This document shows positions 11,715-32,973 of a DNA stretch of 64,000 nucleotides, in pieces (within the stretch, counting starts at the first letter, position 1; each line of letters starts with the position of its first letter). The position numbers were made by a program, and so were the translations under genes. The DNA is from Chloroflexota bacterium (GTDB lineage Bacteria > Chloroflexota > Limnocylindria > Limnocylindrales > CSP1-4), in NCBI GenBank assembly GCA_021802825.1, contig JAJZRG010000009.1, positions 10,010-74,009 of the forward strand, in the 5' to 3' direction. The notes beneath the pieces were generated by a model, which did no database searches, was not told the DNA's origin, and saw only the letters and a list, made by a program, of their open reading frames with translations.

Positions 11715-11736
11715 GTGCTCGCTCCCAATGCTGCGC

Positions 11737-14149: not shown

Positions 14150-14294
14150 GGCGTCGGGACGGCCTCCTGTGGTTCGTGCGCTTGGGCCCCGGTCCGCGCG
14201 GCGCGTCGCTGGTGCGGCCATCGTACGTTGCCGCCGCCACTGGCGACCTGCGGCCGGGCGGGTGCCGGCGCATGGGCACTGTGCCGCCCGAACC

Positions 14295-14493: not shown

Positions 14494-15132
14494 TCAGTGG
14501 GTGTGCGCCCCGGCGATCGGGCCGCCCTGGACGGACCGGCTGGGTGCGGCGCCCCCGGACGCGAGCTCGCCGACGCGGCGGGATGCCGCGCGGACCTCGC
14601 GGAGGAACCGCAGGGCGACCAGAGAGATGCCGAGCTGGATCACAGGCATGACGCTGTCGAGGTCGACGCCTTCGTCGAACGGGTCGCCGGAAATCAGCCA
14701 GGGGTGGCTGCCGTTGTTGGCGAGGTGGAAGTTGACGTTCAGGAAGATCGCGAGGAGGCCCGCGCCGATGACGATCGCCAGCAGCAGCGACTGGCGGTTG
14801 GCGCCGAGGCGATCCCAGCGTGCCCACCACAGCACGGCGACGGCGACGAGGAGCGCGCCGATGACGAGCTCGCCGACCATCACCAGTACCGCGAACAGCT
14901 GTGCGTTCGGGATGACCAGGCCGGTGAGGAAAGAGTCGTAGGGGCCGCTCAGGCCTTTCGCCGTGTCCGTGAGATTGTCGCCGAGGCCGCTCACCCAGTC
15001 AGGGCTCAGCAGCTTGGACAACCCGGACATGAACCACTCATAGCCGAGGAACGCCTGAATGGCGAGCAGGCCGGCCAGCAGGGGACGGGCCGCCCCCTGG
15101 AAGGTGACCCTTTGGGTGTCCTTGTCAGTCAT
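14494..15132 (-). CDS. DoxX-family membrane protein (copy 1)
   Basis: 212 aa, 4 TM helices. LLAIQAFLGYEWFMSGLSKL and VGELVIGALLV are typical DoxX-like patterns. Confidence 0.6.
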   Translation of the reverse strand: MTDKDTQRVTFQGAARPLLAGLLAIQAFLGYEWFMSGLSKLLSPDWVSGLGDNLTDTAKGLSGPYDSFLTGLVIPNAQLFAVLVMVGELVIGALLVAVAVLWWARWDRLGANRQSLLLAIVIGAGLLAIFLNVNFHLANNGSHPWLISGDPFDEGVDLDSVMPVIQLGISLVALRFLREVRAASRRVGELASGGAAPSRSVQGGPIAGAHTH

Positions 15133-15588: not shown

Positions 15589-17016
15589 TCAGCGCCCTGG
15601 CGTCGCCGCGGCGAACGCAGCGACGAGCGGCTGCGCAATCACGCCGGTCACGACGAGAACCGCCGCCGAGGCCGCCGTCGCGAACGCCGCCGCAGCTCCG
15701 AGCGTCCGCATCCGTCCCGCTGCCGCCGCGAAGTACACGGGCGCGAGCACCCGCACGTAATAGAAGATGGATATGACCGTGTTGGCGGCAGCGATCACCG
15801 CGAGCCAGGCGAGCCCGGCCTGGATCGCCACGACGAACAGCAGGAGCTTCGCCACGAACCCGGACAGTGGCGGGACCCCGATGAAGGACAGGAAGCTCAG
15901 TGCCAGCGATGCGGCCGCGGTCCGATGCTCGTTCGCCAGCCCCGGGTAGTCGGCGAGGGCAGTGCGCCCTCGCAGCGTCACGACGACGCCGAAGGCCGCT
16001 AGGTTCGCCGGAACATAGGCGGCGAGGAAGTAGAGGAGCGCCGCCATGGCGAGGTCGCTACGGCCGAGGGCGGCCACTGCCATCAGCCCGTAGCCCGTCT
16101 GCGAGACGGCCGACCAGCCGAGCAGCCGCCGGACGTCGTCCTGCCAGAGGCAGGCCAGGTTGCCCAGGGTCATGGTGGCAGCAGCACCGACAGCGACCAT
16201 CATCTCCCAACCGACCGTCGAGGGCGGCAGCACGAGGACGAGGCGGGCGAGGAACACGAACGCACCGACCTTCGGCACCGCCGTCAGGAAGCCTGCGATC
16301 GGGGCCGGCGCGCCTTGCGCGACGTCCGGCACCCAGACGTGGACCGGCACGGCGCCGAGCTTGAACATGAGACCGGCCATCACCAGGGCGACGGCCACGG
16401 ATGCCGCCGGCGAAGCGCTGTCCGGCAGGCCGGCGGCCAGGCGGTCGAGGGTGGTGGCCCCGGCAAGGCCATAGAGGGTGGCGACGCCCATCAGCATCGC
16501 CGCGTTGGCCAATGCCCCGACCAGGTAGTACTTGATCGCGGCCTCGGCCGCGGCCGACGACTTGCGGTGATAGGCGGCGAGGACGAACCCCGTGGCCGAG
16601 GACATCAGCATGGCCACGACGAGCTCCGTCAGCGCGGCTGCCCCCGCGAGCAGCATCGCGCCGAGCGCGCCGTACAGCAGCAGGGTGTAGTACTCGCCAT
16701 GCCGCGGGTCGCGCCGGAACCACGGGACGGAGAAGGCCACCGTCACACCCGTCGCGAGGAGGACGATGACCCGCGCGACCGCGGCGGCGGCGTCGTGGGC
16801 GTAGGTCCCGGCGAACGTCAGGCGCCCGGGCTCGCCGAGCGCGGGGATGGTGAGCGCGAGCGCCACACCCGTCGTGGCCAGCGCGAGCCAGGCAGCCCCG
16901 ACCTGGCGCCGGGGCCCGGCGGCCAGCGCATAGAGCAGCACCACGATGCCGCCGACCACCATGGCGAGCTCGGCGAGCACGTCGCCCGCCCAGCCCACCA
17001 TCGTGCCGATCGGCAT
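15589..17016 (-). CDS. nuoN: Complex-I-like antiporter subunit, NuoN homolog
   Basis: ORF 15589..17817, ATG 17016 (MPIGTMVGW) overlaps the nuoM stop by 1 nt (TGATG). 14-TM Mrp/Nuo antiporter-like pattern (KLGAVPVHVWVPDVAQGAPAPIAGFL, GWSAVSQTGY). Confidence 0.85.
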   Translation of the reverse strand: MPIGTMVGWAGDVLAELAMVVGGIVVLLYALAAGPRRQVGAAWLALATTGVALALTIPALGEPGRLTFAGTYAHDAAAAVARVIVLLATGVTVAFSVPWFRRDPRHGEYYTLLLYGALGAMLLAGAAALTELVVAMLMSSATGFVLAAYHRKSSAAAEAAIKYYLVGALANAAMLMGVATLYGLAGATTLDRLAAGLPDSASPAASVAVALVMAGLMFKLGAVPVHVWVPDVAQGAPAPIAGFLTAVPKVGAFVFLARLVLVLPPSTVGWEMMVAVGAAATMTLGNLACLWQDDVRRLLGWSAVSQTGYGLMAVAALGRSDLAMAALLYFLAAYVPANLAAFGVVVTLRGRTALADYPGLANEHRTAAASLALSFLSFIGVPPLSGFVAKLLLFVVAIQAGLAWLAVIAAANTVISIFYYVRVLAPVYFAAAAGRMRTLGAAAAFATAASAAVLVVTGVIAQPLVAAFAAATPGR

Positions 17017-18512
17017 CACCGTCGGCCCACGAACGGCCCGGCGAAGGCGTCGATGGTGCCGAGCAGCCACCCGGGCACCACGCCGATCAGGAGCACGAAG
17101 GCGCCGAGGACTCCCAGCAGCCCGGCCTCGCGCCGGCCGAGGTCGGGGAACTCGCGCCAGCGCTCGGGCAGCGCCCCCAGGAACAACCTGCCCAGCATCC
17201 GCAGGAAGAGCCCTGCGGTGATCACGATTCCCAGCAGGGCCACGGCGGCGAGCGCCGGGTAGACCGCGAGTGCCCCGACGAAGATCTGCACCTCCGCGAC
17301 GAACCCCGCGAGTCCGGGCAGGCCCAAGCTCGCGAAGGCGAGCAGGGCGGTGATCCAGGTCAGCGACCTCGCCCGCCCGAGCAGCCCCCCGTACGAGTCG
17401 AGGTCGTACGTGCCGCCGCGGGCGAGGACCGATCCGCTGACGAGGAACAGTCCCCCCGTGATCAGGCCGTGGGCGACCATCTCGACCGTCGCCCCGGTGA
17501 GGGCAAGCGCGCGGGCCGCCTCCTGGCCGGGGGCGGCGGCGCCGGCCACCGCGAGCCCGAGGATCACGTACCCCATGTGGTTGACGCTGGTGTAGGCGAT
17601 CAGCCGCTTGAGGTTGGTCTGTGCGAGCGCGACGAGCGCCCCGTACACGATCGAGATGACCGCCAGCACGGCGAGCGGCAATGACAGCTGCGCCCAGACG
17701 CCCGGGACCATGCTCATCAGGATGCGCACGAACCCGTAGGTGCCCATCTTGAGGAGGACGCCCGCGAGGATGGCAGAAGCCGGTCCTGGCGCGTCCACGT
17801 GGGCGGGCGGCAGCCATGTGTGGAACGGGACGATCGGGGTCTTGATGGCGAACCCGGCGAAGAACCCGGCGAAGACCAGTGCCGCGTAGACCCCGCCTCC
17901 GGCGAGCGGCTGCTGGCGGATGATCTCGGCCATGTCGAACGTGTGGGGGTCCGTGGCGAGATAGACGCCGAGGATGGCGAGGAGCAGGGGCAGCGAGCCT
18001 GCGAAGGTGTAGAGGAAGAACTTGAGGGCCGACCGCTGGGCGTCACCGTGGCCCCACGCGCCGATCAGGAAGTACATCGCCACCAGCGAGACGTCCCAGA
18101 AGACGAAGAACAGGAACAGGTCCAGCGCGAGGAACACCCCGACAGAGGCGCCCTCGAGGAACAGGATCAGCGCGTAGTAGGGGACCGGCCGGCCCCGCAA
18201 GTCGACGGGGTAGGCCACAGCGACTGTGAACACGAGCGCGGTCATCGCGGCGAGCGGCAGCGAGAGCCCGTCCACCCCGACTCGGTACGAGATGCCGAGC
18301 GTCGGGATCCACGGAACGGTCTCCACCTGCTGGAAGCCCGACGCGCCATCGAAGCGGAGCCAGGCCGCCGCCACCAGGACCAGCGGGACGACCGCCACGA
18401 TGGTCGCCGCAACAGCGAGCGCACGCGGACTCGCGCCGAGACCACGGCTTCTCGGGAGCAGCGCGAGCAGGGCCGCGGCAAGGATCGGGATGAAGATGGC
18501 GGCGGTGAGCAC
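17016..18512 (-). CDS. nuoM: Complex-I-like antiporter subunit, NuoM homolog
   Basis: C-terminal 498 aa of shadow-extended ORF 17016..20267. GTG 18512 (VLTAAIFIPIL) has an AGGAG SD. Motifs FFVFWDVSLVAMYFLIGAWG, KTPIVPFHTWLPPAHVDAP, YTSVNHMGY. Confidence 0.9.
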   Translation of the reverse strand: MLTAAIFIPILAAALLALLPRSRGLGASPRALAVAATIVAVVPLVLVAAAWLRFDGASGFQQVETVPWIPTLGISYRVGVDGLSLPLAAMTALVFTVAVAYPVDLRGRPVPYYALILFLEGASVGVFLALDLFLFFVFWDVSLVAMYFLIGAWGHGDAQRSALKFFLYTFAGSLPLLLAILGVYLATDPHTFDMAEIIRQQPLAGGGVYAALVFAGFFAGFAIKTPIVPFHTWLPPAHVDAPGPASAILAGVLLKMGTYGFVRILMSMVPGVWAQLSLPLAVLAVISIVYGALVALAQTNLKRLIAYTSVNHMGYVILGLAVAGAAAPGQEAARALALTGATVEMVAHGLITGGLFLVSGSVLARGGTYDLDSYGGLLGRARSLTWITALLAFASLGLPGLAGFVAEVQIFVGALAVYPALAAVALLGIVITAGLFLRMLGRLFLGALPERWREFPDLGRREAGLLGVLGAFVLLIGVVPGWLLGTIDAFAGPFVGRR

Positions 18513-18532: not shown

Positions 18533-20431
18533 TTAGCGGGCCACGGCGAGGATGGCCGCGATCGCAGCCACGCCGACGGCGCCGATGACGTAGTAGTGGT
18601 GAGTGAGGCCGGTCTGGAGCCGACGGCTCTGGTGGCCGGCCATGCCGACCGCGCGCCCCGTGCCCTCGACCGAGCCGTCGACAACGGCCTCGTCCGCGCG
18701 CCGGGAGAGGCGGCCCGCCAGCATGCCGCCCGCGGCGGTCGCCATGACGAGGCGGTCGACGGACACGTCCACGCGAAGGGCCGTGACCGCGGAGGCGGCC
18801 CGCGCGATCCGCACGGCAGCCCGGACGCCCGCGTCGATGACGCGATCGTCGGCACGCGCCAAGGCGCAAGACAGGGCGAGCGTCGGCCGAACGACGAGCC
18901 GGGTCGCGAGCACCGGCAGGCCGAGCCAGTCCTCGACCATCGGCCTCGCGCGGAATGCCGCGAGCAGGCCTCGGCGCTCGAGCGCAGCAACGGTCGCCGC
19001 CCCGAGGATGAGCATCATCACCGCGGCCGCGACGCCCCACAGGGCGCCGTCGATCAGGACGCCTCCGGTCGCGGCCTCCACGATCGGCCTTGCGGGCGGC
19101 ACCCAGAGGGCGGCGAGGGCGACGCTCGCCCCCGCGAGGGCGCCGACACCGGCAAGCTCGACGCGCCCCGGCCGCCGCGCCAACTCGCCCTGGTGGCCAG
19201 GCCCATAGGCGAGGAGCAGGAAGCGGCCGGCATAGACGGCGGTGAGAAGGGCCGAGCCGAGGGCGAGCACCTCGAGTAGGGGACCGGCTGCGGCGACGAC
19301 CGAGAGGATCTCCTCCTTGCTCCACGCGGCGCCGAGCGGGGGCACGCCTGCGAGGGCGAGCGCGCCGACGGCCGCAGCGAGCGCGGGGCCCGGCAGTGCC
19401 CGGCCGAGGCGCCACCGCCGGATCTCGGACGTCCCCGCGGCGTGGATCGCGATCCCGGCGAGAAGGAAGAGCAGCGCCTTGAACGCGGCGTGGGTGACGA
19501 GCTGGGCGCCGGCCGCTGCCGTCGACCCGGCGCCGATCGCCATGAACATGAGCCCGTACTGGGCCGAGGTCGATGCGGCGAGGACGCGCTTGCCGTGCTG
19601 GTGGACCGCGGCGACGACCCCGCCGCCCAGCGCCGTCGTCAGGCCGATCGCCAGGATCGCCGGCAGGAACCAGGGCACGCCGACGAGCGACGGCGCGAGC
19701 CGGATGAGCAGGTACGCGCCGGCGGACACGAGCGTCGCGCTGTGGAGCAGGGCCGACACCGGCGTCGGGCCCGCCATGGCGGCGAACAGCCACGGGCTGA
19801 ACGGGACCTGCGCCGACTTGGCGGCAGCGGCGAGGAGCACGCCGGCCGCGATCATCTCCCTCCACGGCGACGCGGCGGCCGCCACGCCGTCGAATGCGAA
19901 CGCACCGGTCGCCGCGAAGGTCGCGCCCGCCGCGACATACAGCCCGAGGTCTCCGAGGCGCGTGGTGAGGAACGCCTGCGTGGCGCTGTCCACGTTCGTG
20001 CGGTCGCGCCAGCCGTGCCCGATCAGCGCCCAGGACGTGGCCCCGACGAGCTCCCAGCCGATGAGCAGCGAGATGAAGTCCCCGGCTGACACCAGGAGCA
20101 GCATCGCGGCGACGAACGCCACGAGCAGCGAGAGCAGCCGCGTCGGCTCGTCTTCCCCGGATGCGGCGGCGTACGCGATCACGGGCGCGGCGATGGCCGG
20201 CACGAGCACGACCATCACGCGCCCGAAACCCGCGACCGCGAGCGTGAGCCCGAAGGCCGGTCCCCACGCGATGCGCAATGTCGGCTCCGCCAGCGCCGAA
20301 GCGACGCCGAGGAGTGCGACGAGGATCAGGCCGACGACGGCCACCGGCCCGAGCGCGCGGGGACGCGAGCCGAGGCGAGCCAGCACCGCGGCGAGGAGCA
20401 GCGCGACGAGCGGCTGGGCGAGCGCGGTCAT
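18533..20431 (-). CDS. nuoL: Complex-I-like antiporter subunit, NuoL homolog with C-terminal lateral helix
   Basis: ORF 18533..20590, ATG 20431 (MTALAQPLV), ATGA overlap with the nuoK stop. Motifs IGWELVGATSWALIG and KSAQVPFSPWL. C-terminal amphipathic segment plus final TM helix (RRLQTGLTHHYYVIGAVGV). Confidence 0.9.
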   Translation of the reverse strand: MTALAQPLVALLLAAVLARLGSRPRALGPVAVVGLILVALLGVASALAEPTLRIAWGPAFGLTLAVAGFGRVMVVLVPAIAAPVIAYAAASGEDEPTRLLSLLVAFVAAMLLLVSAGDFISLLIGWELVGATSWALIGHGWRDRTNVDSATQAFLTTRLGDLGLYVAAGATFAATGAFAFDGVAAAASPWREMIAAGVLLAAAAKSAQVPFSPWLFAAMAGPTPVSALLHSATLVSAGAYLLIRLAPSLVGVPWFLPAILAIGLTTALGGGVVAAVHQHGKRVLAASTSAQYGLMFMAIGAGSTAAAGAQLVTHAAFKALLFLLAGIAIHAAGTSEIRRWRLGRALPGPALAAAVGALALAGVPPLGAAWSKEEILSVVAAAGPLLEVLALGSALLTAVYAGRFLLLAYGPGHQGELARRPGRVELAGVGALAGASVALAALWVPPARPIVEAATGGVLIDGALWGVAAAVMMLILGAATVAALERRGLLAAFRARPMVEDWLGLPVLATRLVVRPTLALSCALARADDRVIDAGVRAAVRIARAASAVTALRVDVSVDRLVMATAAGGMLAGRLSRRADEAVVDGSVEGTGRAVGMAGHQSRRLQTGLTHHYYVIGAVGVAAIAAILAVAR

Positions 20432-20733
20432 CCCTTCAGCTTCCGCAGCTTCTCGGTGATGTCCGCGCGCCTGACCCGGTAGACACCGGTGATGAGGGCG
20501 AAGCCGAGGGACATCTCGACCGCCATCACGGTCATGAACACGATGGCCAGCATCTGCCCGTCGGGGCTCCCGCCCGCAGCCCGCGCCCACATGGCGACGA
20601 GGACGAGCAGGGACCCGTTGATCATCAGCTCGATGCCCATCATCAGCATCACGAAGGACTGCTGGCTCAGCGCCCCGAAGACGCCGATGCCGAACAGCGC
20701 GGCTCCGACGACGAGGACGGCCTCAGTGGTCAC
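20428..20733 (-). CDS. nuoK: Complex-I-like subunit NuoK homolog
   Basis: GTG 20733 (VTTEAVLVVGAALFGIGVFGAL), GTGA overlap with the nuoJ stop. 101 aa, 3 TM helices. Conserved acidic residues in MGIELMING and AVEMSLG. Confidence 0.85.
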   Translation of the reverse strand: MTTEAVLVVGAALFGIGVFGALSQQSFVMLMMGIELMINGSLLVLVAMWARAAGGSPDGQMLAIVFMTVMAVEMSLGFALITGVYRVRRADITEKLRKLKG

Positions 20734-21296
20734 GCTGACGCCTCTTCGTCCGGCTGAAGCCCGGGCTCCTCGGAGCCCTCCGCGGCGTCGCCGTGCCGGC
20801 CGCGGGGCGCCGCAATCGCGATCGCCCCGACCATCGTGGCCAGGAGCGTGACGCCCGCCGTCTGGAACACCAGCATCGAGTTGCCGAGGAGCTCGCGCCC
20901 CAGCTCTGCGGTGGCCGCGGCAGGATCGGGCGCGGGTCGCGATGGCACTTCGCCCGAAAGCCCGACGCCGGCGATGGCGAGGAAGGCGATGACCCCGGCG
21001 ACGACGGCCGTGCGCGGCTGGTGGACCATCACCATCGGGTTGAGCCCGGCCGGGTTCATCATGTACATGACCATCACGATGGCCATCACGAGCATCTCGC
21101 CGGCCATCATCAGGATGAGCACCATGCCCAGGAACTCTGCCCCGAGGAGCACCATGATCCCGCCCGTGGCCGCGAAGGACGCCAGCAGGTAGAAGGCGGC
21201 GCGGACCATCGAGTCCGTCCGGAACACCCTGACGCCCGCCACGATCGCGACGAGCGAGAAGGCGGCGAAGCTGAGGTCGATCAGCGCTCCGGTCAC
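20730..21296 (-). CDS. nuoJ: Complex-I-like subunit NuoJ homolog
   Basis: GTG 21296 (VTGALIDLSF), GTGA overlap with the nuoH stop. AAFYLLASFAATGGIMVLLGAEFLGMVLILMMAGEMLVMAIVMVMYM fits the NuoJ TM pattern. Confidence 0.8.
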   Translation of the reverse strand: MTGALIDLSFAAFSLVAIVAGVRVFRTDSMVRAAFYLLASFAATGGIMVLLGAEFLGMVLILMMAGEMLVMAIVMVMYMMNPAGLNPMVMVHQPRTAVVAGVIAFLAIAGVGLSGEVPSRPAPDPAAATAELGRELLGNSMLVFQTAGVTLLATMVGAIAIAAPRGRHGDAAEGSEEPGLQPDEEASA

Positions 21297-22225
21297 AGGA
21301 GAAACGCCCCCGACACGAACACGTTGAGCAGGGCGAGGGGGACCAGCAGCACCCACGCGACGCCGACGAACCGCTCGATCCGCACCCGGGCCAGCAGGTG
21401 CTGGGCGCCGGCCATGACGGCCAGCAGCAACCCCGTCTTGAGCGCGACCCATAGCGGGCCGGGGAGGATCGGCCCAAAGTAGCCGCCGAGGAAGGCTGCG
21501 GCGCCGAGGGCGGCGACCGCCACCAGCATCGAGAGCCGCGCGACCTGCCAGAGCCATCGAGCCCAGCCCGCATCCTCCGCGGAGGTGCCTCCGGCAAGGT
21601 CATCACCGTCGGGGAGGTTGAGCGGGCCCCAGAACCCCACCGCGAGCCCCACCACGAGGTAGATCGGCAGGCCGAGCGGCTCGCGGACCACGTTCCACAG
21701 GCCGGCCTGCGCCTCGACGATTCGGACGATGGACAGCGACTGGGCCGGGAGGGCCGTCGCGAGCATCGCGAGGAGGAATGGGATCTGGAACGACAGCGCC
21801 ACGGCCCCGAACCGGTAGGCCCCGTGGAGCGGCAGGGTCGAGTTGGGCGACCAGCCGTGGAGGAACACCGCGATCATCACGAACGCCACCGCCGCCGAGT
21901 ACACGACGAAGCCGGTGTCCGGATCGGCCAGGGCGACGCCTGGACCGAGCGGCAGCAGCACCATCGCGAGCGCGGCCAGGCCCGCGAGAAGTGCGGGCGC
22001 CACGGCCCGCCCAGCCCCATCCGGGCGCTCGGTCGTAGTCGAGCCGGTGCGCGCCGCGAGCATCGCCCGGGCGACCGGCGCGGTGAGGAGCGGGAGTACC
22101 CGGATCGGGCGTCCGGCAACTACCGCCCCCGCGACACCGTCGCCGATCGCGAGCGCGAGTGCACCAACCGCGAGCAGACCGGCCACCGCGGCCGCGGCCG
22201 CGATCACCTCGAGCAGCGGGCTCAC
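21293..22225 (-). CDS. nuoH: Complex-I-like subunit NuoH homolog
   Basis: GTG 22225 (VSPLLEVIAAA), GTGA overlap with the upstream stop. 310 aa, 8 TM helices. Assigned as NuoH-like from its position between the Q-module remnant and nuoJ and from TM topology. Sequence is divergent. Confidence 0.65.
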   Translation of the reverse strand: MSPLLEVIAAAAAVAGLLAVGALALAIGDGVAGAVVAGRPIRVLPLLTAPVARAMLAARTGSTTTERPDGAGRAVAPALLAGLAALAMVLLPLGPGVALADPDTGFVVYSAAVAFVMIAVFLHGWSPNSTLPLHGAYRFGAVALSFQIPFLLAMLATALPAQSLSIVRIVEAQAGLWNVVREPLGLPIYLVVGLAVGFWGPLNLPDGDDLAGGTSAEDAGWARWLWQVARLSMLVAVAALGAAAFLGGYFGPILPGPLWVALKTGLLLAVMAGAQHLLARVRIERFVGVAWVLLVPLALLNVFVSGAFLL

Positions 22226-23508
22226 GCCGCTGTCACGCCGGCTAGCGCCGCCATCTCGTCGAGGTCGAGGTCGAGCGCCGCGATCGTCGCAAGCGCGTCC
22301 CCCCACTCGAGGCCCTCCACGAGGGCCGGGACGAACTCGAGCGCGCGCGCCGTCGGCGCGTCGCCCAAGGCGATCCGCCCTCGGGGGCTCTCGGTCGTCC
22401 CTGTGACCGTCGTCACAGCGCTGCCCGCGCGAGATGCTAGGTCGACGCTCTGCGACGCTTCGCCGAATCGCGCTCGCCAGACCGCGGCGACGCCATCTCC
22501 CACATCCGTGATCGGCGCGAAGCCGAGCGCGATATACGCGGGGTCGGCGAGCCGCTCGTCGTCGACACCGCCGCAGGCGCGCGACACCGGGCCCAGCCGG
22601 GCGTCCGCCAGCAGGGAGCGGCGGCGATCGTCGACGTTCGGCAGGGACCAGCGATAGACGCCGGTCCTCTGGACCGCGGTCGCAAAGCGGCCGACCGCCG
22701 CCGAGTCGCCGGGGGCGATCGTCCGGGCGAGCTCGAGGGCACGAAGGGAGATTGCTCGCAGGCCCTGAAGGCGGAGTGCCTCGGCGGCCCACCGGAGGTG
22801 CGCCCGGGCGCGCGCCATCTCAAGGTCCGCGATCGATTGCGGCTGCGTCAGCGCTCGCACGAACGCCGACCCCCCGGCGGCCTCTGAGGTACCCACCTCG
22901 GACCCCGTGACCCTCGCCTCAACAACGACGTCGCCGGAAACCCGCAGGTCAAGCTCGAGCCCAGCGGGGAGCGGCGCGAAGAATGGCCCGAGGCGGGTCG
23001 GCAGCACGTCGAGCCGCAGGCCGTCGCGGTCGGGCCCCAGCTCCGCCATCGGCCGCCCGTACGGGGTGCCCCCGGTCATGCCGCTGCCGCCCTGTCCGTA
23101 CGGCCCGACGCCGCGCCAGGTGGCTGGGTCCACGTCCGGCAGCAGGGCCGGCTCGGATGGCCTCCCGCCCAGAACGAGGTCGCGGAAGACAGCGCGCGTC
23201 GCGGCGACTGGGTCGGCGTCGGGGCCGATCCGCTCCGCGCCGGCCCCGGCCAGACCGTCGGGCGCCGATGCCCAGAGGACGGTCGCCCTCGGGTGGGGCA
23301 GCGCGTCGTGGACCCGAGCCGCCGCCTCGCCCAGACGCGGGCCGAGCTCACCGGCGACCAGGAGGATAGACGCCGCCCGGGGCGAGTCGACGAGCGTGAT
23401 GCCGTCGGCGAGGAGCAGGTCCTGCACCGCCCAGCGCATCCCTGCCCCCGCCAGCGCGAAGACGGGGGCATCGGCCGCTGCCGCCATCCGATGGAACACC
23501 GAGGTCAT
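22222..23508 (-). CDS. Fused NuoB-like / NuoD-like protein lacking Fe-S (N2) cysteines and quinone-site histidine
   Basis: ORF 22222..23790, ATG 23508 (MTSVFHRM), ATGA overlap with the nuoA stop. N-terminus: VFALAGAGMRW...SPRAASILLVAGE...LPHPRATVLWAS, versus NuoB FGLACCAIEM...SPRQADVMIVAG...MPEPKWVISMG. C-terminus: GPFFAPLPAGLELDLRVSGDVVVEARV, ARARAHLRWAAEAL, GPVSRACGGVDDER..DPAY, GDGVAAVWRARFGEASQS and ESPRGRI, matching NuoD blocks. Confidence 0.7.
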   Translation of the reverse strand: MTSVFHRMAAAADAPVFALAGAGMRWAVQDLLLADGITLVDSPRAASILLVAGELGPRLGEAAARVHDALPHPRATVLWASAPDGLAGAGAERIGPDADPVAATRAVFRDLVLGGRPSEPALLPDVDPATWRGVGPYGQGGSGMTGGTPYGRPMAELGPDRDGLRLDVLPTRLGPFFAPLPAGLELDLRVSGDVVVEARVTGSEVGTSEAAGGSAFVRALTQPQSIADLEMARARAHLRWAAEALRLQGLRAISLRALELARTIAPGDSAAVGRFATAVQRTGVYRWSLPNVDDRRRSLLADARLGPVSRACGGVDDERLADPAYIALGFAPITDVGDGVAAVWRARFGEASQSVDLASRAGSAVTTVTGTTESPRGRIALGDAPTARALEFVPALVEGLEWGDALATIAALDLDLDEMAALAGVTAA

Positions 23509-23861
23509 GTCCAGTCGAAGGCGCGCTCGCGCCACGCGTAGAGGACGCCCAGGAGCAGGATGGCGATGAACATGCCCATCTCGACCATCGCCACGATGCC
23601 CTCGCTGACGAACACGACGGCCCACGGGTACATGAAGACCATCTCCATGTCGAAGGCGAGGAAGAGGAGCGCCATCGGGTAGTAGCGGGCGTGGTAACGG
23701 CTCCACGCGTGGGCCGAGGGCGGGCGGCCGCCGGTGAACGGGACCCGCTCCGGCGCCGTCGCGCGAGCGTTGCGCGCCGTGCGCAGCCACGAGGCGAGCA
23801 CGGCGAGCAGGGCGGCCACCATCACCGAGAAGGCGACCGCGAGCGGGCCCAGATCCGTCAT
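23505..23861 (-). CDS. nuoA: Complex-I-like subunit NuoA homolog
   Basis: 118 aa, 3 TM helices. RYHARYYPMALLFLAFDMEMVFMYPWA matches the NuoA core (F..FD.E..F.YPWA). Confidence 0.85.
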   Translation of the reverse strand: MTDLGPLAVAFSVMVAALLAVLASWLRTARNARATAPERVPFTGGRPPSAHAWSRYHARYYPMALLFLAFDMEMVFMYPWAVVFVSEGIVAMVEMGMFIAILLLGVLYAWRERAFDWT

Positions 23862-23864: not shown

Positions 23865-24023
23865 CTAGACGTAGTCGTCCGGCGACTCGCGGAAGCTGTC
23901 GGCGCAGTCCTGGCTGCAGAAGTAGTACGTGGTGCCGTTGTGCTCGATGGATGTGACCGCCTCCGACGGGCGGATCTTCATCCCGCAGACGGGGTCGGTC
24001 ACGGGCTGGTCGTTCTCAGGCAT
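23865..24023 (-). CDS. YHS-domain protein (52 aa), first gene of the complex-I-like operon
   Basis: ORF 23865..24116, ATG 24023 (MPENDQPVTDPVCGMKIRPSEAVTSIEHNGTTYYFCSQDCADSF). The stop lies 3 nt before the nuoA start. Confidence 0.8.
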   Translation of the reverse strand: MPENDQPVTDPVCGMKIRPSEAVTSIEHNGTTYYFCSQDCADSFRESPDDYV

Positions 24024-24187: not shown

Positions 24188-24928
24188 TCAGAACAGCGGT
24201 CCCGCGTGGCATGCGACGACGAACAGAAGGAATGCGGCAGCGGGCAGCCACTCATAGGGCAGGGCTGGGCGCCAGGCGTCCGCCCCCGACCGGTCGCGGC
24301 CGACCAGCCACGTGATCCGCTGATCCGCGACGCTGGCGAAAGAGGTCCCTCCGACACCGAGGCGATCCGCCTTGAGAAGGGCACGCGCGAGCGTCGACGC
24401 GCTTGACCCGGCGGCGAGGGCCGCGCGGTCTGCCTCGATCTCCAGCGCCGCGAGCCGATCCGCCACCGCGTTGCGGCCGGGCCCAACCGGCCCGAGGAGC
24501 ACGCCCCAAGCCTGCAGGGCGGCTGCCCGCAGGGGCGCCCGCGTCCTCCGATGGTGGTCCTCATGGCGTATGACTGCCCAGACCTCGTCGCCGTCGAGAT
24601 GCGTGAGGAGGGCATCGCCCACGTAGATGCGCGGCCGGAGCGCGCCAAGGACGAACGCGTGGCTCCCCCCGGCAGGCAGGACGCGTACCTGCACGCCACC
24701 AAGGTCGCTTGAGATCGCGCGTCTATCGAGTGCCCGGCCAGCCCGAGCATCGCTCAGGAGAATCCCTGTGGCTACGAAAGCCCAGACACCAAGCAGCAGC
24801 CCGCCGCCAACCTCGAGCGCCCGGACGGGGGCGCCAGAAGCATCGGGGAGGACGAACGCGCACATGGCCCACACCGCCGCGCCCAGAACCGGCAGCAGGG
24901 CGACGATATTGTGCGGACGAGGCCTCAC
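24188..24928 (-). CDS. BlaR1-like M56 membrane metalloprotease without extracellular sensor domain
   Basis: GTG 24928 overlaps the blaI-like stop (GTGA). TM helices plus IRHEDHHRR (HExxH). 246 aa, so no penicillin-binding-type sensor domain. Confidence 0.7.
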   Translation of the reverse strand: MRPRPHNIVALLPVLGAAVWAMCAFVLPDASGAPVRALEVGGGLLLGVWAFVATGILLSDARAGRALDRRAISSDLGGVQVRVLPAGGSHAFVLGALRPRIYVGDALLTHLDGDEVWAVIRHEDHHRRTRAPLRAAALQAWGVLLGPVGPGRNAVADRLAALEIEADRAALAAGSSASTLARALLKADRLGVGGTSFASVADQRITWLVGRDRSGADAWRPALPYEWLPAAAFLLFVVACHAGPLF

Positions 24929-25359
24929 GAGTCCTCGCCCTGCGCGAGACGCAGGAGTTCGGCGCGGAGCTCGGGATCGAGCGTGCTCAGCCGTTCGCCG
25001 AACTGGCGCAGGGCTGCGGCACCGTAGCGCGTGAGCACGGCGTCCACTGCCCGCCCCGCAAGGGCGTCAACCGACGAAGCCTCGTCCGCGACCGGCCAGT
25101 ATCGAAAGCCCCGCCCGGTCCGGCTGCGCTTGAGCAAGCCCCGTTCGTGGAGGCGCGACAGAATCGTCATCACCGTGGTGTAGGCAAGCTGGTGCGACTG
25201 CTGACGGTTCAGGGCGCCGGCCACCTCGGCGACGGTGGACGGACCCTGCGCCCACAGGACTCGCATGACCGCAGTTCCCAGTGGTCCGAGCATGGCCTCG
25301 ACGCCGGGCTGGCCGAGGTGCTCCTCATCCTGCTGCATCGCGCGACCATAGCACGGCAT
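24925..25359 (-). CDS. BlaI/MecI/CopY-family winged-helix repressor
   Basis: LGPLGTAVMRVLWAQGPSTVAEVAGALNRQQSHQLAYTTVMTILSRLHERGLLKR matches the BlaI N-terminal wHTH pattern. No C-terminal CxCxxxxCxC (CopY) motif. True start may be an internal ATG (25338 or 25293). Confidence 0.8.
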   Translation of the reverse strand: MPCYGRAMQQDEEHLGQPGVEAMLGPLGTAVMRVLWAQGPSTVAEVAGALNRQQSHQLAYTTVMTILSRLHERGLLKRSRTGRGFRYWPVADEASSVDALAGRAVDAVLTRYGAAALRQFGERLSTLDPELRAELLRLAQGEDS

Positions 25360-25422
25360 CTTGCCCTTGCCCGCGGTCGAGGCGGACCTCCGCCGGGACG
25401 CGGCCGCGCCATCGAGCCCATA

Positions 25423-25440
25423 TACTACTGGGGTGTCGTA
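25423..25440. promoter_or_regulatory. Candidate BlaI-type operator TACTAC-N6-GTCGTA in the blaI / ccmA divergent region
   Basis: TACTACTGGGGTGTCGTA: inverted half-sites matching 5 of 6 positions (TACTAC vs reverse complement TACGAC). It sits in an AT-richer patch 21 nt before the ccmA ATG and 64 nt before the longest blaI-like start. Confidence 0.4.
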
Positions 25441-25460
25441 ATTCGCCAGTCAAGGTCCCA

Positions 25461-26150
25461 ATGGTCACGTCCCCAGACCCATCGTGTCCTGGACAGCCGC
25501 TCGTCGGCTTGTCGGGCGCGACCAAGTTGTACGGCCCTACGGTTGCCATCTGGCGTGTGGACCTTTGGGTCTTCCGCGGCGATGCCGTAGGGATCGTCGG
25601 GGGCAACGGCTCCGGGAAGACGACGCTGCTCCGGGTGGTCGCCGGCGTCCTCGACCTCGACGCTGGCCTGCGGAGGGTGGCCGACGAGTCAGCGCTGGCC
25701 CGCCCGAGGATCGCCCTCCTCGGGCACCGGACAGGGTTGTACGGGGATCTCAGCCTTCGCGAGAACCTGCGGCTGGTCGCCCTCGCCTCCCACTCCAGGG
25801 CGGGCTGGCGAGATGAGGTGCTCGCCCGCCTGGACCTCCACGAGGTTGCGGACCTCCGCGTCTCTACGCTATCCGCCGGGACACGTCGGCGCGCAGGCCT
25901 GGCCCGGGCCCTCGTCTCGGATCCCGATCTGCTGATCGCTGACGAGCCGTTCAGTTCGGTCGACGCGCGCCATGCCGAAGCGATGGCCGACGCCATGCGC
26001 TCTTGGCATGCGTCAGGCGGATCGCTCCTCGTTGCCGGCCATGACGCGGCGACGCTGCTCCCTGTGTGCGTCCGGCTGCATCGGCTGTCCGGTGGCCGGC
26101 TCGTGTCGGCAGTAGACAGCGCCGCGCACACCGGTCGGTGCAGCGCATGA
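25461..26150 (+). CDS. ccmA: Heme exporter ATP-binding protein CcmA
   Basis: ORF 25281..26150, ATG 25461. Walker A GGNGSGKTT, signature LSAGTRRR, Walker B LLIADEP. First gene of the ccm operon. Confidence 0.85.
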   Translation: MVTSPDPSCPGQPLVGLSGATKLYGPTVAIWRVDLWVFRGDAVGIVGGNGSGKTTLLRVVAGVLDLDAGLRRVADESALARPRIALLGHRTGLYGDLSLRENLRLVALASHSRAGWRDEVLARLDLHEVADLRVSTLSAGTRRRAGLARALVSDPDLLIADEPFSSVDARHAEAMADAMRSWHASGGSLLVAGHDAATLLPVCVRLHRLSGGRLVSAVDSAAHTGRCSA

Positions 26151-26821
26151 GCATCTTTCGGGAGGCTCTTGAGCTGGCGCGCAAGGACATCGTCACCGAG
26201 ATCCGCGCACGAGATGCGCTCCCGAGCGCGATTGCGCTCGGGGCGACGGCCCTGTTGGTGGTGGCGCTCGCCATCGGACCGGACGTCGAGCGCCTCCGCT
26301 CGCTTGCCCCGGCGCTCGTCGGCGTGGTCCTCGCCTTCGCCACGATCACACTCGCCGATCGGCTCGACGCCGTCGATCGGGCCGATGACGCGTTCGTCGC
26401 CCTGTGGCTCGTTCTGGAGGACCCGCGGGCAATCCTCATCGGGCGGGTGATCAGCCTGACAGCAAGCCTCTTCGTCCTCGAGCTCGGGCTGTGGGTCTCG
26501 GCGTCGCTGCTCCTGGACGTCGAGCTCACCGCGGCGACTGTGGTTCTGGTGCCGGTCGCCCTCTTGTCGAGTCTCTCGGCGGCCTCGGTCGCAGCGCTTG
26601 TGATGACGCTCGTTGGCACGACGCCACAGCGCACGGTGCTCGCGCCGACGCTGCTGCTGCCACTTCTTGTGCCGACCCTGCTGTCGGGCGTGCAGGCGGC
26701 GAGCGCTGTGCTCGCGGGCAGCGGTCCGCTTGTCCTGTGGGCCGGCGTCAGCGGTGCGGAAGCGCTCCTGTTCGTGGGTGTTGGGTTGCTCACCTACCGC
26801 GAGGCTGCGAAGCCGGCATGA
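26147..26821 (+). CDS. ccmB: Heme exporter membrane protein CcmB
   Basis: ATG 26147 (MSIFREALELARKDIVTEIR), ATGA overlap with ccmA. 6-TM protein in the canonical position. Confidence 0.8.
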   Translation: MSIFREALELARKDIVTEIRARDALPSAIALGATALLVVALAIGPDVERLRSLAPALVGVVLAFATITLADRLDAVDRADDAFVALWLVLEDPRAILIGRVISLTASLFVLELGLWVSASLLLDVELTAATVVLVPVALLSSLSAASVAALVMTLVGTTPQRTVLAPTLLLPLLVPTLLSGVQAASAVLAGSGPLVLWAGVSGAEALLFVGVGLLTYREAAKPA

Positions 26822-27486
26822 TCCGAGGTGGTTGGATTCGTGCGCACTCCGGCATGATGGTCGCGGGGGCTGTCGCTGTTGTGCTGGTCACGGGCCTGAT
26901 GCTCGTGCCCGCGGACGCGAGCCAGGGCGACGTACAGCGGCTGATGTACGTGCACGTCCCGGCGGCATGGGTGGGCTACCTCGCGTTCCTCGTGGTCTTC
27001 CTCGCGAGCGTCGGCTACTTGTGGCGGCGCACCGCCCGCCTCGATCACCTGGCGGCGGCCTGCGCTGAGGTTGGGGTGCTGTTCACCGCAGTCGCGATCG
27101 CGTCGGGCTCGATCTGGGGCAAGGCCACCTGGGGCAAGTGGTGGGATTGGGACCCGAGGCTCACCACCACGGCGATCATGCTGCTCGCGTACGCCGCATA
27201 CCTGCTGCTGCGGCAGTCGATCGCGGACCGCCGGCGACGCGCCCGGCTGGCCGCGGTGTTCGGCGTGCTGGCGTTCGTCAACGTGCCGGTGGTGCACTTC
27301 TCGGTGTTGTGGTGGCGGAGCCTCCACCAGCCACCGACCATCCTCCGGCCAGGCGACCCCACAATCGACCACCTGCTGCTAGCCCAGCTGATCGCCAGCG
27401 TGGCCGTGTTCAGTCTCGCGTTTGTCTGGCTCGTGCGCGAGCGTGTGCGCCTCGAGCGAATTCGCGAAGCGGTTGCCGATGTCTGA
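26818..27486 (+). CDS. ccmC: Heme exporter protein CcmC
   Basis: ATG 26818, ATGA overlap. WWD motif WGKATWGKWWDWDPRL. Confidence 0.9.
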   Translation: MIRGGWIRAHSGMMVAGAVAVVLVTGLMLVPADASQGDVQRLMYVHVPAAWVGYLAFLVVFLASVGYLWRRTARLDHLAAACAEVGVLFTAVAIASGSIWGKATWGKWWDWDPRLTTTAIMLLAYAAYLLLRQSIADRRRRARLAAVFGVLAFVNVPVVHFSVLWWRSLHQPPTILRPGDPTIDHLLLAQLIASVAVFSLAFVWLVRERVRLERIREAVADV

Positions 27487-27658
27487 CCTCCAGTTCGTCC
27501 TGGCCGGGTATCTCGTCGTTGTGGGGGGCGTTGCAGCTTATGCCGTCATGCTCCGGCGCCGGCTCGCCGCGGCGCGCATCCGGAGGGCAGCCATGCGTGC
27601 GTTCTCCGAGTCCACCAGCGACGACGCGGCACCCGTGCATGACGCCAGCCCCAAGTGA
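27479..27658 (+). CDS. ccmD: CcmD-like small membrane protein
   Basis: ATG 27479 (MSDLQFVLAGYLVVVGGVAAYAVMLRRRL). Single TM helix, located between ccmC and ccmE. Confidence 0.6.
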   Translation: MSDLQFVLAGYLVVVGGVAAYAVMLRRRLAAARIRRAAMRAFSESTSDDAAPVHDASPK

Positions 27659-28086
27659 GCAGACGGGTCTCGGCGCTCGGGTTGTTGCTGGTCGGTGCGG
27701 CGCTTGTCGTGCTGGTCGGCGTCGGGCTCTCGAGCGCCGTCGTCTACTACAGAACGCCTTCGGAGCTCCTTGCAAGCCGGGACAGCGCGCCCACTCGCCT
27801 GTATGGCCTGGTCGTCCCAGGATCGGTACACGTCGACGCCGCGACGCACCGCCTTTCGTTCAGGATCACGGATGGCACTACATCGATCGGCGTCGTGTCC
27901 ACGGCGCTGCCGACGGCGCTGTTTCGTGATGGGGTCGGGGTCGTTCTGGCCGGCAGCATGGGTCCAGGGGACGTCTTCGCCGCGGACGAAGTGCTCGTGA
28001 AGCACTCCGAAGTCTATGAGGCGATCCAGCCTGGGCAGACGGTTCCGCCGGCGGTCGTGACCTCGCTGGGCGGTGGCACACCGTGA
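27655..28086 (+). CDS. ccmE: Heme chaperone CcmE
   Basis: GTG 27655 (GTGA overlap). N-terminal anchor, OB-fold pattern LYGLVVPGSV...FRITDG...V, heme-binding VLVKHSEVYEA. Confidence 0.85.
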   Translation: MSRRVSALGLLLVGAALVVLVGVGLSSAVVYYRTPSELLASRDSAPTRLYGLVVPGSVHVDAATHRLSFRITDGTTSIGVVSTALPTALFRDGVGVVLAGSMGPGDVFAADEVLVKHSEVYEAIQPGQTVPPAVVTSLGGGTP

Positions 28087-29999: not shown

Positions 30000-30591
30000 G
30001 CAGGCGGCCTCGACTGGTCCGGCCGATCCCGAGGCGTGGGACCCGGCACCGCCGTCTCGGCCACGTACCCGGCGCCGACTTGTCTGGATCCTCGGCGCCA
30101 TTGCCGTCGCGATCCTCGTTGAAGTGACCGTCACCTTCCGGGTCACCCCGCCATCGGGAATGGACCGGGGTCCGGGCGTCGATCGCCCGGCCGCCTCCTT
30201 CGATCTCCAGACTCTCGACGGCCGCCGCCTCGGCCTCGGGAACTATGCAGGGCGCCCCGTGATCGTGAACTTCTGGGCTTCCTGGTGCCCTCCGTGCCGC
30301 GAGGAGGCGCCGTTGCTGGTGCAGCTGGCGCGCAGGGCGCCCCAGGGTTTGGCCGTGGTCGGCATCCTGTATCAGGACACTGCAGAGAACGCTCAGAGGT
30401 TCGTGGACGAGTTCGGCGTGCCTTACGCCACCCTGCTCGACCCGCAGGGGACCGCCGCGATCGACTATGGCCTCACCGGCATCCCCGAGACCTTCTTCAT
30501 AGACCGCACGGGGATGATCCGGGCCCACCAGGTCGGGGTGCTCTCGCAGGCCGACATCGACGCCAAGCTCCGCACGATCGCCGGGCCATGA
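29992..30591 (+). CDS. ccmG: Thiol:disulfide oxidoreductase CcmG/DsbE (thioredoxin fold)
   Basis: Track ORF starts at TTG 29962; GTG 29992 overlaps the ccmF end. TM anchor, [13 protein letters not shown] active site, [12 protein letters not shown]. Confidence 0.85.
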
Positions 30592-32896: not shown

Positions 32897-32947
32897 CTGC
32901 AGGCGGCAGCGCTTGCTGCCGCTCGCGGGAAGGGTGGCCCGTGCGGA

Positions 32948-32973
32948 TGAGCCCGGGCTGAACGTGTGCTGAG
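32948..32973 (-). promoter_or_regulatory. Phased YTCA-N7 array (x3) upstream of the multicopper oxidase
   Basis: Top-strand TGAG 32948, TGAA 32959, TGAG 32970. Lies 52-77 nt upstream of ATG 32896. Confidence 0.5.

Follow-up and report, generated by a model that had tools for sequence, protein, structure and literature searches.

A NuoB-NuoD fusion without redox sites in a complex I-like gene cassette associated with copper genes

Introduction

Operons that encode only part of respiratory complex I have been described before in marine actinomycetes. Among the marine-adaptation genes of Salinispora, Penn & Jensen 2012 (PMC3314556) included a 'second partial NDH-1 operon' for the membranous part of complex I, and papers on Kocuria flava S43 and on a sponge Streptomyces (PMC6002675, PMC6676996) report nuoA, a 'hypothetical protein' said to have no homologs in UniProt or PDB, and nuoH-N. 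All three papers assign the operon to salt adaptation, as a Na+/H+ pump, and they are silent on NuoB/NuoD ancestry, on the loss of redox sites, on a YHS partner, and on copper. Here, we analyze a locus with the identical gene order (nuoA-hyp-nuoHJKLMN) in a 64-kb stretch of DNA with a G+C content of ~72% (hereafter the window: contig JAJZRG010000009.1, positions 10,010 to 74,009, of the Chloroflexota assembly GCA_021802825.1), where the middle gene encodes a fusion of a NuoB-like and a shortened NuoD-like domain. Homology of this middle gene was computed for the protein from Curtobacterium, while the correspondence with Salinispora, Kocuria, and Streptomyces SM17 is by gene order alone. We suggest that the cassette is most probably a widespread, mobile, complex I-derived machine without redox centers that works in copper handling.

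Within complex I, the two halves of the fusion correspond to NuoB (Nqo6/PSST/NDUFS7) and NuoD (Nqo4/49 kDa/NDUFS2), to which they are homologous by profile and by predicted fold. As in complex I, the fusion gene lies between nuoA and nuoH, and its product retains the SPRxA, PxPR, E..R...H, and GP..RA.G..D.R blocks. Unlike complex I, the two halves form one chain with a new invariant Gly/Met loop at their junction, and the locus encodes no NuoC or NuoI partner. Cyanobacterial NDH-1MS with CupA is a known case of non-respiratory chemistry bolted onto a complex I chassis. Fused complex I forms are also on record as CD and BCD, and a cofactorless fusion is not among them (2025 survey, PMC12361115). 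NuoCD and NuoBCD fusions and NDH-1MS all differ from the present system in that they keep cluster N2, NuoI, and the quinone site, and are electron-driven.

The closest analogue for the action proposed here is Mrp (Mnh/Pha/Sha), a redox-free cation/proton antiporter of the same superfamily. Mrp consists of MrpA-G and has no NuoH, NuoA, or NuoB/D-like cap, whereas the cassette has NuoH, NuoA, and the fusion; furthermore, its L, M, and N subunits score best as NuoL/M/N, with the Mrp models lower (NCBIfam), so that it does not classify as Mrp. The two also differ in the ion, since we propose that the cassette carries a soft metal, for which it has its own cytoplasmic binding protein. Ehr and MBH/MBS/FHL are further complex I relatives, in which a NuoD-like subunit lacks the ancestral catalytic ligands (PMC6349859). 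Ehr is described among group 4 hydrogenase relatives and assumed to be redox-driven, whereas the B-like part encoded by the cassette has no cluster ligand of any kind.

A functional parallel of another descent is the HME-RND exporter CusCBA, in whose CusA structures methionine clusters relay the ion, as we propose below for a methionine run in the NuoJ-like subunit. CusCBA exports Cu(I)/Ag(I) at the expense of the proton motive force (pmf) and is fed by a small metallochaperone (PMC7558416), which makes it an analogue of a hand-off from the YHS protein. It is not homologous to the cassette, CusA being an RND trimer, and RND genes sometimes adjoin the cassette rather than replace it. Literature searches turned up neither a NuoB-NuoD fusion devoid of cluster ligands nor a copper system of the Nuo type, and such a system is also missing from a 2020 review of copper homeostasis in bacteria. 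The RefSeq plasmid records that we inspected label such operons as NADH-quinone oxidoreductase subunits with a central "hypothetical protein". An operon of this gene order is already known as a 'partial nuo operon'; the papers that we found on it do not describe the NuoB-NuoD ancestry, the loss of the redox sites, the YHS partner, or the link to copper.

A NuoB-NuoD fusion without cluster N2 and quinone ligands

The fusion gene (Table 1) is a stop-free reading frame of 428 codons, with G+C contents of 0.79, 0.58, and 0.88 at the three codon positions. Its ATG start shares bases with the TGA of the upstream nuoA-like gene (GGACATGACC), and its own TGA shares bases with the GTG of the downstream nuoH-like gene (GCGGCGTGAGCC). 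An earlier note on this DNA, made from the letters of the sequence, had described an uninterrupted frame with high third-position GC and translational coupling on both sides, and this description is borne out. A Pfam scan of the window protein returned zero matches, although PF00346 is annotated on many of its homologs.

Several comparisons nevertheless assign the N-terminal part to the NuoB/PSST family (PF01058, TIGR01957), including the SPRQAD and MPEPK blocks. In a phmmer search of the PDB, only NDUFS7/PSST/NuoB (Nqo6)/MbhJ chains were matched, over residues 36-85 (E 0.003-0.5), with SPRAASILLVAG pairing with SPRQADVMIVAG and HDALPHPRATVLW with YDQMPEPRYVVSMG. A family profile of 27 homologs matched only NuoB-type chains for this part (residues 38-83, E 2e-5), and a hidden Markov model (HMM) of diverse homologs aligned with Nqo6 residues 54-129. 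The domain also shows a beta-alpha-beta pattern in the secondary structure of an AlphaFold2 (AF2) model. More distant were the NCBIfam NuoB models, which reached E 0.01 against the fusion, far under the curated cut-off, and profile comparison with single E. coli NuoB and NuoCD sequences, which gave merely low-probability partial alignments.

The ligands of cluster N2 were located by aligning Nqo4 and Nqo6 of T. thermophilus, sequences verified to be identical to 2fug_4 and 2fug_6, with a profile built from 61 diverse homologs. Among the four ligands of Nqo6 (C45, C46, C111, and C140), C111 corresponds to Ala83, and the segment with C140 is deleted. The fusion contains a single cysteine, C312, leaving residues 1-311 Cys-free; among the 61 diverse homologs, there is no conserved Cys column, and many have zero Cys. 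An alignment with four cysteines at these positions did not appear, in agreement with the earlier note, which had held the N2 cysteines to be lost. The note had also read the tandem-cysteine segment FGLACCAIEM as FALAGAGMRW: cysteine is indeed missing there, but the exact register was not fixed by any alignment, an uncertainty that is immaterial because residues 1-311 have no Cys. Judged by its residues, the fusion cannot bind cluster N2. A Streptomyces-type second nuo operon with intact NuoB2, NuoD2, and NuoI2 was considered as an identification and dropped, as NuoI and the cysteines are both missing.

The C-terminal part is homologous, by profile and predicted fold, to NuoD/49 kDa (PF00346; [NiFe]-hydrogenase-large-subunit-like). 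The family profile matched NuoD/NdhH/49-kDa chains in the PDB at E 1e-7 and MbhL at 5e-4. The earlier note had proposed structure prediction as a check: the AF2 model of the fusion, computed with the homolog alignment as input, had a mean predicted local distance difference test (pLDDT) score of 84.9 and a predicted TM-score (pTM) of 0.85, and a Foldseek search of the PDB with this model returned 49-kDa/NuoD/NdhH chains as its top 50, with HycE at rank 14 (E 1.7e-6, TM-score 0.35-0.5, probability 1.00). An Ehr- or hydrogenase-related origin is disfavored because NuoD/NdhH score better than both MbhL and HycE, a comparison that bears on Ehr only indirectly. Together with the phmmer and profile matches and the HMM alignment to Nqo4 and Nqo6, these results support the NuoB-NuoD identity that the note had given to the protein.

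Neither quinone head-group ligand of Nqo4 (H38 and Tyr87) has a counterpart in the fusion. In the HMM alignment, GPQHPSTH38G of Nqo4 corresponds to GPFFAPLP181AG, in which the His is missing, and Nqo4 residues 56-113 (58 residues, including Tyr87) have shrunk to ~25 residues without a conserved Tyr or His. The earlier note had read the first of these replacements from the sequence, and also the loss of a large middle part of NuoD. In all, ~150 residues of NuoD are deleted. The E..R...H helix is retained (E230, R233, and H237). From its alignment to Nqo4, the fusion lacks the ligands for the quinone head group.

Shorter fusion forms of ~300-390 aa occur in actinomycetes and in Roseivivax and Acuticoccus (P0234-P0270; L086 11917-12825; L088 11935-13056), in which the NuoD-like part is further reduced and the GP..RA.G..D.R..Y block is gone. 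Since these forms keep the B-like domain and the linker, the D-like domain appears to be progressively dispensable.

Conservation and distribution of the fusion

A word-indexed protein search, in which 8000 candidates were scored, recovered >700 homologs at E <=0.001, all of 410-445 aa and mostly from Candidatus Limnocylindria-type Chloroflexota. When 50%-identity representatives were searched exhaustively, 1454 clusters scored E <1e-3, and 260 of these reached E <1e-30. Within the family, 22 columns are invariant down to 30% identity, and the ratio of nonsynonymous to synonymous substitution rates (dN/dS) was 0.17-0.30 across 30 ortholog pairs, indicating purifying selection, though somewhat above the neighboring membrane subunits (about 0.02-0.28). 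The gene is therefore maintained rather than decayed, as the earlier note had supposed, and constitutes a genuine fusion, kept by selection, in which a NuoB-like domain is joined to a shortened NuoD-like domain.

A relative of the fusion is present in at least 367 GTDB species genomes (one genome per species). From the scan of these genomes, 80 loci were kept, belonging to Chloroflexota, Actinomycetota, Gemmatimonadota, Acidobacteriota, and others. In addition, 13 plasmids of cultured bacteria match the fusion. The Curtobacterium homolog aligns with the family profile at an hhalign probability of 99% (E 5e-18), and proteins from Micromonospora, Gordonia, Janibacter, and Mycobacterium are among its own homologs.

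A nine-gene cassette with a methionine-rich membrane arm

The fusion is the third gene of a cassette on the minus strand in the order YHS, NuoA, fusion, NuoH, J, K, L, M, N. This order holds as far as the contigs reach in the 80 scanned loci and one further locus (L002), and in the window the junctions from NuoA through NuoL are 4-base overlaps. By Pfam and NCBIfam, the cassette encodes the membrane arm of complex I (NuoA, H, J, K, L, M, and N), with its key residues retained except NuoN E133, NuoH E157, and NuoJ Y59. The electron path is missing: neither NuoC, NuoI, nor the NuoE/F/G input module was found in the cassette in the window, at the related loci, or at the loci on the inspected plasmids. 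By gene content, the fusion is the sole peripheral-arm subunit of the cassette. We regard this structural description of the cassette and the fusion as close to certain.

The first gene putatively encodes a small metal-binding protein. A YHS homolog of ~50 aa lies directly upstream of nuoA in 76 related loci, and its Cys triad, DPVC(G/Q)M...(Y/F)(Y/H/S/F)FCSxxC, is invariant in all 76. We take this pattern to be the TRASH/YHS metal-binding signature. On the plasmid of Halomonas sp. KO116, an insertion sequence (IS) element occupies the position at which the YHS gene would be expected.

The membrane subunits combine well-preserved proton-path residues with a few consistent replacements. NuoL retains E144, D178, K229, H254, H338, K342, and K399; NuoM retains K234, K265, H322, H348, and E407, with E144 replaced by Asp; and NuoN retains K217, K247, K395, and E154. 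The Glu of NuoN transmembrane helix (TM) 5, E133 in E. coli, is Leu, Val, or Met in all 43 family members; the Asp of NuoM occupies the equivalent site. In canonical complex I, NuoN adjoins the A/J/K bundle, which in this family is Met-rich. NuoH, when aligned with E. coli NuoH, has lost both the canonical quinone-cavity loop motif of TM1-2 and the equivalent of E157. NuoA reads FDMEMVFMYPWA and retains the positions of E. coli D79 and E81 in 51 of 51 sequences. In NuoK, the corresponding segments are SFVMxMMGLELM and VFMTVMAVE; its E36 and E72 positions are retained in 61 of 61 sequences, and its Met content is 7-9%.

TM3 of NuoJ is a methionine run with a new glutamate (LILMMAGEMLVMAIVMVMYMMNPAGLNPMVMVHQPR). 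At this place, canonical NuoJ from Paracoccus, Thermosynechococcus, Thermus, and E. coli reads VY(A/V)GA..VLFLFV.M, without a Met run. Where E. coli has Y59, 60 of 61 sequences have Met; the new invariant Glu follows three residues later, and the motif is also found in proteobacterial, Rubrobacter, and Curtobacterium cassettes. Methionine enrichment is confined to the three small subunits: the family median is 6.0% in NuoA, 7.7% in NuoJ, and 7.0% in NuoK, against 1.3-2.4% in NuoH, L, M, N, and the fusion and 1.8% over all called ORFs of the window. No such contrast exists in E. coli, where NuoA and NuoJ have 2.7% and NuoK 4.0%, and NuoH, L, M, and N have 3.7-4.9%. The 3-4 times enriched methionines of NuoA, J, and K flank the retained channel carboxylates and are kept across phyla.

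The linker between the NuoB-like and NuoD-like parts

The linker is the most conserved motif of the family, reading W-R-G-x-G-P-x-G-Q-G-G-x-G-M-x-G-G-x-P-Y-G-R-P-M-A....D-R-D-G-L-x-L-D. In the family alignment, its columns from W131 to D167 are invariant or near-invariant across phyla. In the AF2 model of the isolated chain, residues 129-160 have pLDDT <50 (32-42) and are the only unplaced part. Being invariant yet disordered on its own, the linker may become ordered only against a partner, and the model suggests that it folds only when another subunit or a ligand is present.

The relatives carry recognizable metal-binding elements at this junction, where 2-5 HMBD domains, or repeats rich in His and Met, separate the B-like part from the D-like part. 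The Rubrobacter homolog (746 aa) consists of a NuoB-like part, two HMBD domains (PF19335, E 2e-27), long His/Met-rich repeats, and a NuoD-like part, and its cassette has no separate YHS gene. Sulfitobacter encodes the B-like part on its own, as a protein of 137 aa, and its D-like protein starts with five HMBD copies. The Curtobacterium linker at the same junction reads DHDMTMGGHDHMSMDHMSMSG. We infer from these architectures that the B-D linker may be a metal-handling region.

Copper genes around the cassette

The window itself contains several genes of apparent copper or heavy-metal function (Table 1). Upstream of the cassette and on the same strand lie a BlaI/CopY-family repressor gene and an M56 peptidase gene, a pair that also adjoins the cassette in two other loci (L028 and L070). 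Downstream is a two-component system: the best NCBIfam model for the kinase is the heavy-metal sensor kinase cztS_silS_copS (E 3e-58), and the second-best for the response regulator is cztR_silR_copR (E 6e-70), both below the curated cut-off. In several related Limnocylindria-type loci, the cassette is flanked by orthologs of the kinase and regulator that are 85-90% identical. A search of the window for the CopY/BlaI 'cop box' (TACANNTGTA) found none.

Beyond the window, the flanking ORFs of the genome loci were clustered, and the cluster representatives were checked by Pfam. Recurrent neighbors are P-type ATPases with Met/His-rich N-termini, CsoR repressors, multicopper oxidases, DUF305 proteins, RND pumps, HMA proteins, and cupredoxins. 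At least one gene for a P1B-ATPase, CsoR, multicopper oxidase, DUF305 protein, RND pump, HMA protein, or cupredoxin was present in 23 of the 48 genome loci with >=6 kb of flank, a lower bound because detection used few BLAST queries.

On six of the eight inspected plasmids, the cassette lies among copper genes. Its neighbors are copC, copD, azurin, a copRS-like pair, a copA-type multicopper oxidase, and copB on plasmid NZ_CP011053 of Halomonas sp. KO116; CsoR, a P-ATPase, a multicopper oxidase, and DUF305 in Rubrobacter marinus; and cueR, a P-ATPase, HMA, and a multicopper oxidase in Roseivivax marinus. The plasmid of Acuticoccus sp. carries HMA, a P-ATPase, cueR immediately upstream, and a copper oxidase; plasmid pC1a of Curtobacterium sp. 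C1 carries CsoR, copZ, and a P-ATPase gene ending 82 bp before nuoA; and that of Sulfitobacter dubius carries a P-ATPase, a multicopper oxidase, and transposition genes. Copper genes were not found beside the cassette on the Paracoccus plasmid, where only the HMBD domains within the fusion protein were seen, and the match on the Vreelandella sulfidaeris plasmid, annotated solely as fragmented hypothetical proteins, was uninformative. Copper sensors, chaperones, pumps, and oxidases are thus all represented, and the association indicates that the cassette is embedded in putative copper-homeostasis clusters on chromosomes and plasmids of several phyla.

Two further observations concern genes that follow nuoN. 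On the Halomonas KO116 plasmid, egtB and egtD, for ergothioneine biosynthesis, come directly after it (L084 22027-24299), hinting that a thiol-copper complex, and not the free ion, may be handled. In 10 related loci, a gene after nuoN encodes a small SHOCT-domain membrane protein (e.g., L002 18150-18431), and three of these loci also have cupredoxin and HMA genes.

A possible metal pump on a complex I chassis

A role of the cassette in copper homeostasis is likely, given its neighborhoods, its composition, and the domain architecture of its proteins. More specifically, it could be a pmf-driven, non-redox exporter of Cu(I), possibly Ag(I), built on the complex I chassis, to which we would give slightly less than even odds. 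The cytoplasmic YHS protein would capture Cu(I) and pass it to the B-D module above NuoH, for which the relatives would use their HMBD or His/Met linker segments and the window protein its invariant Gly/Met loop. The remodeled former quinone chamber on NuoH would then conduct the ion into the NuoA/J/K bundle, where the methionine run around the retained carboxylates, with the new NuoJ glutamate, might carry it onward. The near-intact Lys/Glu/His chains of NuoL, M, and N would couple this movement to proton influx, such that the net process would be complex I in reverse, with a metal ion in place of quinone chemistry. In its full form, this proposal (probability roughly 0.4) holds that a complex I chassis was converted once, anciently, into a secondary-active heavy-metal pump: the dead NuoB-NuoD pair would be a metal-receiving funnel fed by a YHS/HMBD chaperone, the quinone chamber and E-channel a Met-lined Cu(I)/Ag(I) conduit, and the antiporter subunits would run in reverse. 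Three features that the earlier note had not seen, the conserved YHS-Nuo cassette, the copper-resistance context, and the Met-lined small membrane subunits, together give the loss of the redox sites a functional explanation.

Several points weigh against this proposal. The copper function is deduced only from gene neighborhood, composition, and domain architecture, and the enrichment of copper genes rests on an estimate of chance (a few percent, with a handful of such genes per genome) made without matched control loci; about half of the sufficiently flanked loci have no recognizable copper gene within 10 kb. The soft ligands of the fusion are few, as only M144 and H67 are near-invariant, and that the methionines of NuoA, J, and K face the channel rather than the lipid is our inference. 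Since the NuoN TM5 Glu and NuoH E157 are lost, coupling may differ from that of complex I. Transport might run in either direction, and the ion or a thiol-Cu complex might be moved. In the literature, the operon has been tied to Na+/H+ handling as an adaptation to marine life (PMC3314556).

Elaborating on this published view, the cassette could be a generic Na+ or K+/proton antiporter, or a proton pump, for salt or alkaline adaptation, with the fusion merely a structural cap. This is how the partial NDH-1 operon of marine actinomycetes has been interpreted (PMC3314556, PMC6002675, PMC6676996), and it is consistent with the marine origin of several plasmid hosts, with the retained proton-path residues of NuoL/M/N, and with the precedent of Mrp, which illustrates that complex I-type membrane modules can act as redox-free cation/proton antiporters. 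The window lineage and most of its closest homologs, however, are Limnocylindria-type Chloroflexota and other environmental metagenome-assembled genomes, one of them from groundwater. Transport of Na+ or K+ would also leave unexplained the obligatory YHS Cys3, the HMBD and His/Met inserts, the Met-lined A/J/K bundle, and the CsoR, CueR, CopZ, CopA, and multicopper oxidase neighborhoods, and thioethers do not bind hard cations; we therefore consider salt adaptation unlikely. Alternatively, copper may be imported, or it may be moved across the membrane not for detoxification but to supply multicopper oxidase, cupredoxins, and haem-copper oxidases as periplasmic or extracytoplasmic cuproenzymes. 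Multicopper oxidases, cupredoxins, and cytochrome b nearby would fit such a role, as would the cytochrome c maturation (ccm) cluster of the window and the DsbA/DsbD genes by the plasmid cassettes. The adjoining regulators (CsoR, CueR, CopY-like, CopRS-like) are instead typical of resistance islands, as are the partners (CopA-type ATPases, CopCD, CopB, DUF305, and HME-type RND pumps), often on plasmids with transposases, making supply or import improbable as the main role, with the caveat that export for metallation and export for detoxification look alike at the sequence level.

Two readings that do not involve metal or cation transport fare worse. The cassette might still encode a redox enzyme, with an unrecognized cofactor or partner (the YHS metal centre, cytochrome b, or DoxX) that passes electrons to quinone or Cu(II). 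In favor of such an enzyme are the YHS Cys triad, as a conceivable site for a redox-active metal, the DoxX-like gene after nuoN in the window, and the cytochrome b genes of the window and of seven related loci, but these DoxX and cytochrome b neighbors are not conserved across loci. Because the fusion has no conserved Cys/His set for any cluster, the cassette has neither NuoI nor NuoC, and the quinone His/Tyr and the NuoH quinone-loop motif are lost, we regard a surviving redox function as very unlikely. That the genes are a functionless, decaying remnant of a duplicated complex I operon is effectively refuted. Decay, too, would remove every catalytic residue, and the protein is blank in Pfam, but the frame is intact and coupled, dN/dS indicates constraint, and the invariant motifs are found in at least four phyla and at least 260 clusters, with a strictly kept nine-gene order and spread by plasmids. 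A copper-handling machine derived from complex I remains the reading that we favor.

Implications

The cassette is widespread among Chloroflexota, Actinomycetota, and Gemmatimonadota from soil and fresh water and is mobile on plasmids, and metabolic reconstructions that count it as complex I are probably wrong. If the proposed copper export is correct, the cassette would join P1B-ATPases, RND pumps, and CopCD-type systems as a fourth kind of copper exporter. It would then represent a new class of metal transporter and the first complex I relative whose coupling site holds a transported ion in place of redox chemistry. How the quinone site is coupled to the antiporter subunits is the central open question of complex I, and the cassette looks like a natural redox-free version with the proton path kept. 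Should a bound metal replace quinone chemistry at the coupling site, it would offer a redox-free system in which to study coupling, with culturable hosts in Halomonas, Curtobacterium, Micromonospora, and mycobacteria.

Features of the window

Table 1. Features of the 64-kb window discussed in the text, in window coordinates.
Feature	Coordinates	Strand	Remarks
NuoB-like/NuoD-like fusion (BD)	22222-23508	-	428 aa; without Fe-S ligands and quinone-site residues
NuoB-like flavodoxin-type domain (~aa 1-115)	23164-23508	-	SPRxA and HDxxPxPR motifs retained; all four N2 Cys gone
B-D linker (aa 123-167)	23008-23142	-	most conserved motif of the family
Truncated NuoD-like domain (aa 168-428)	22225-23007	-	N-terminal beta-hairpin, E..R...H helix, GP..RA.G...D.R...Y block, C-terminal ESPRG/LEWGD blocks
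YHS/TRASH-type small metal-binding protein, first cassette gene	23865-24023	-	Pfam YHS E 3.9e-15; 52 aa from ATG: MPENDQPVTDPVCGMKIRPSEAVTSIEHNGTTYYFCSQDCADSFRESPDDYV
NuoA-like	23505-23861	-	118 aa; Met-rich (FDMEMVFMYPWAVVF); Pfam Oxidored_q4 E 1e-27
NuoH-like	21293-22225	-	310 aa; Pfam NADHdh E 9e-35
NuoJ-like	20730-21296	-	188 aa; PDB NuoJ matches E 3e-13
NuoK-like	20428-20733	-	101 aa; Met-rich by the two channel Glu; Pfam Oxidored_q2
NuoL-like antiporter subunit	18533-20431	-	632 aa; NCBIfam NuoL E 9e-91
NuoM-like antiporter subunit	17016-18512	-	498 aa; NCBIfam NDH_I_M, 465 bits, above cut-off
NuoN-like antiporter subunit	15589-17019	-	476 aa; NCBIfam NDH_I_N E 9e-92
BlaI/CopY-family repressor	24925-25449	-	Pfam Penicillinase_R E 9e-22; best NCBIfam CopY/TcrY E 2e-11, below cut-off
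M48/M56 (BlaR1-like) membrane peptidase	24188-24928	-	weak Pfam matches, E 1e-4
Histidine kinase of two-component system	12063-13514	-	downstream of cassette; NCBIfam
Response regulator of two-component system	13466-14221	-	downstream of cassette; NCBIfam
Multicopper oxidase	31712-33070	-	Pfam Cu-oxidase_3, _2, Cu-oxidase; best NCBIfam copper_res_A
Copper-translocating P1B-type ATPase	51220-53892	+	TIGR01511, 615 bits vs cut-off 397
Cupredoxin-like protein	1397-2179	-	context gene
M23 peptidase	2486-3493	+	context gene
CopD-like protein	3494-4015	+	context gene
Second YHS-domain protein	11484-11780	-	His-rich tails; Pfam YHS E 3.7e-10
Lgt-like	10257-11483	-	lipoprotein modification
Lit-like	9196-9984	-	lipoprotein modification
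DoxX-like membrane protein	14494-15132	-	directly after nuoN; weak Pfam, E 8e-4
Cytochrome c maturation cluster	26045-31613	+	CcmB, CcmC-like, CcmF, thioredoxin-like CcmG, CcmH with TPR
Cytochrome b	35797-37014	-	~12 kb from cassette
M48 peptidase, PspA/IM30, and MCRA-family genes	37738-40384; 46538-48628	+; -

The second YHS-domain protein of the window is His-rich at its N- and C-termini (HAHDHRQDH... and ...HDHADHDRAGHAHHG), and its gene adjoins the Lgt-like and Lit-like lipoprotein-modification genes. An Lgt gene together with an RND pump is found beside the cassette in four other loci (L032, L061, L063, and L064). The cytochrome c maturation cluster is divergent and adjoins the CopY-like, M56, YHS, and Nuo-like genes; on some plasmids, the cassette is flanked by DsbA/DsbD and c-type cytochrome genes. 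A tblastn search with the DoxX-like query from the window found no counterpart in the other loci, and the related loci with cytochrome b within 10 kb of the cassette are L024, L045, L055, L060, L069, L071, and L080. The window also encodes an M48 peptidase, a PspA/IM30 membrane-stress protein, and an MCRA-family protein, which are apparently unrelated to the fusion.

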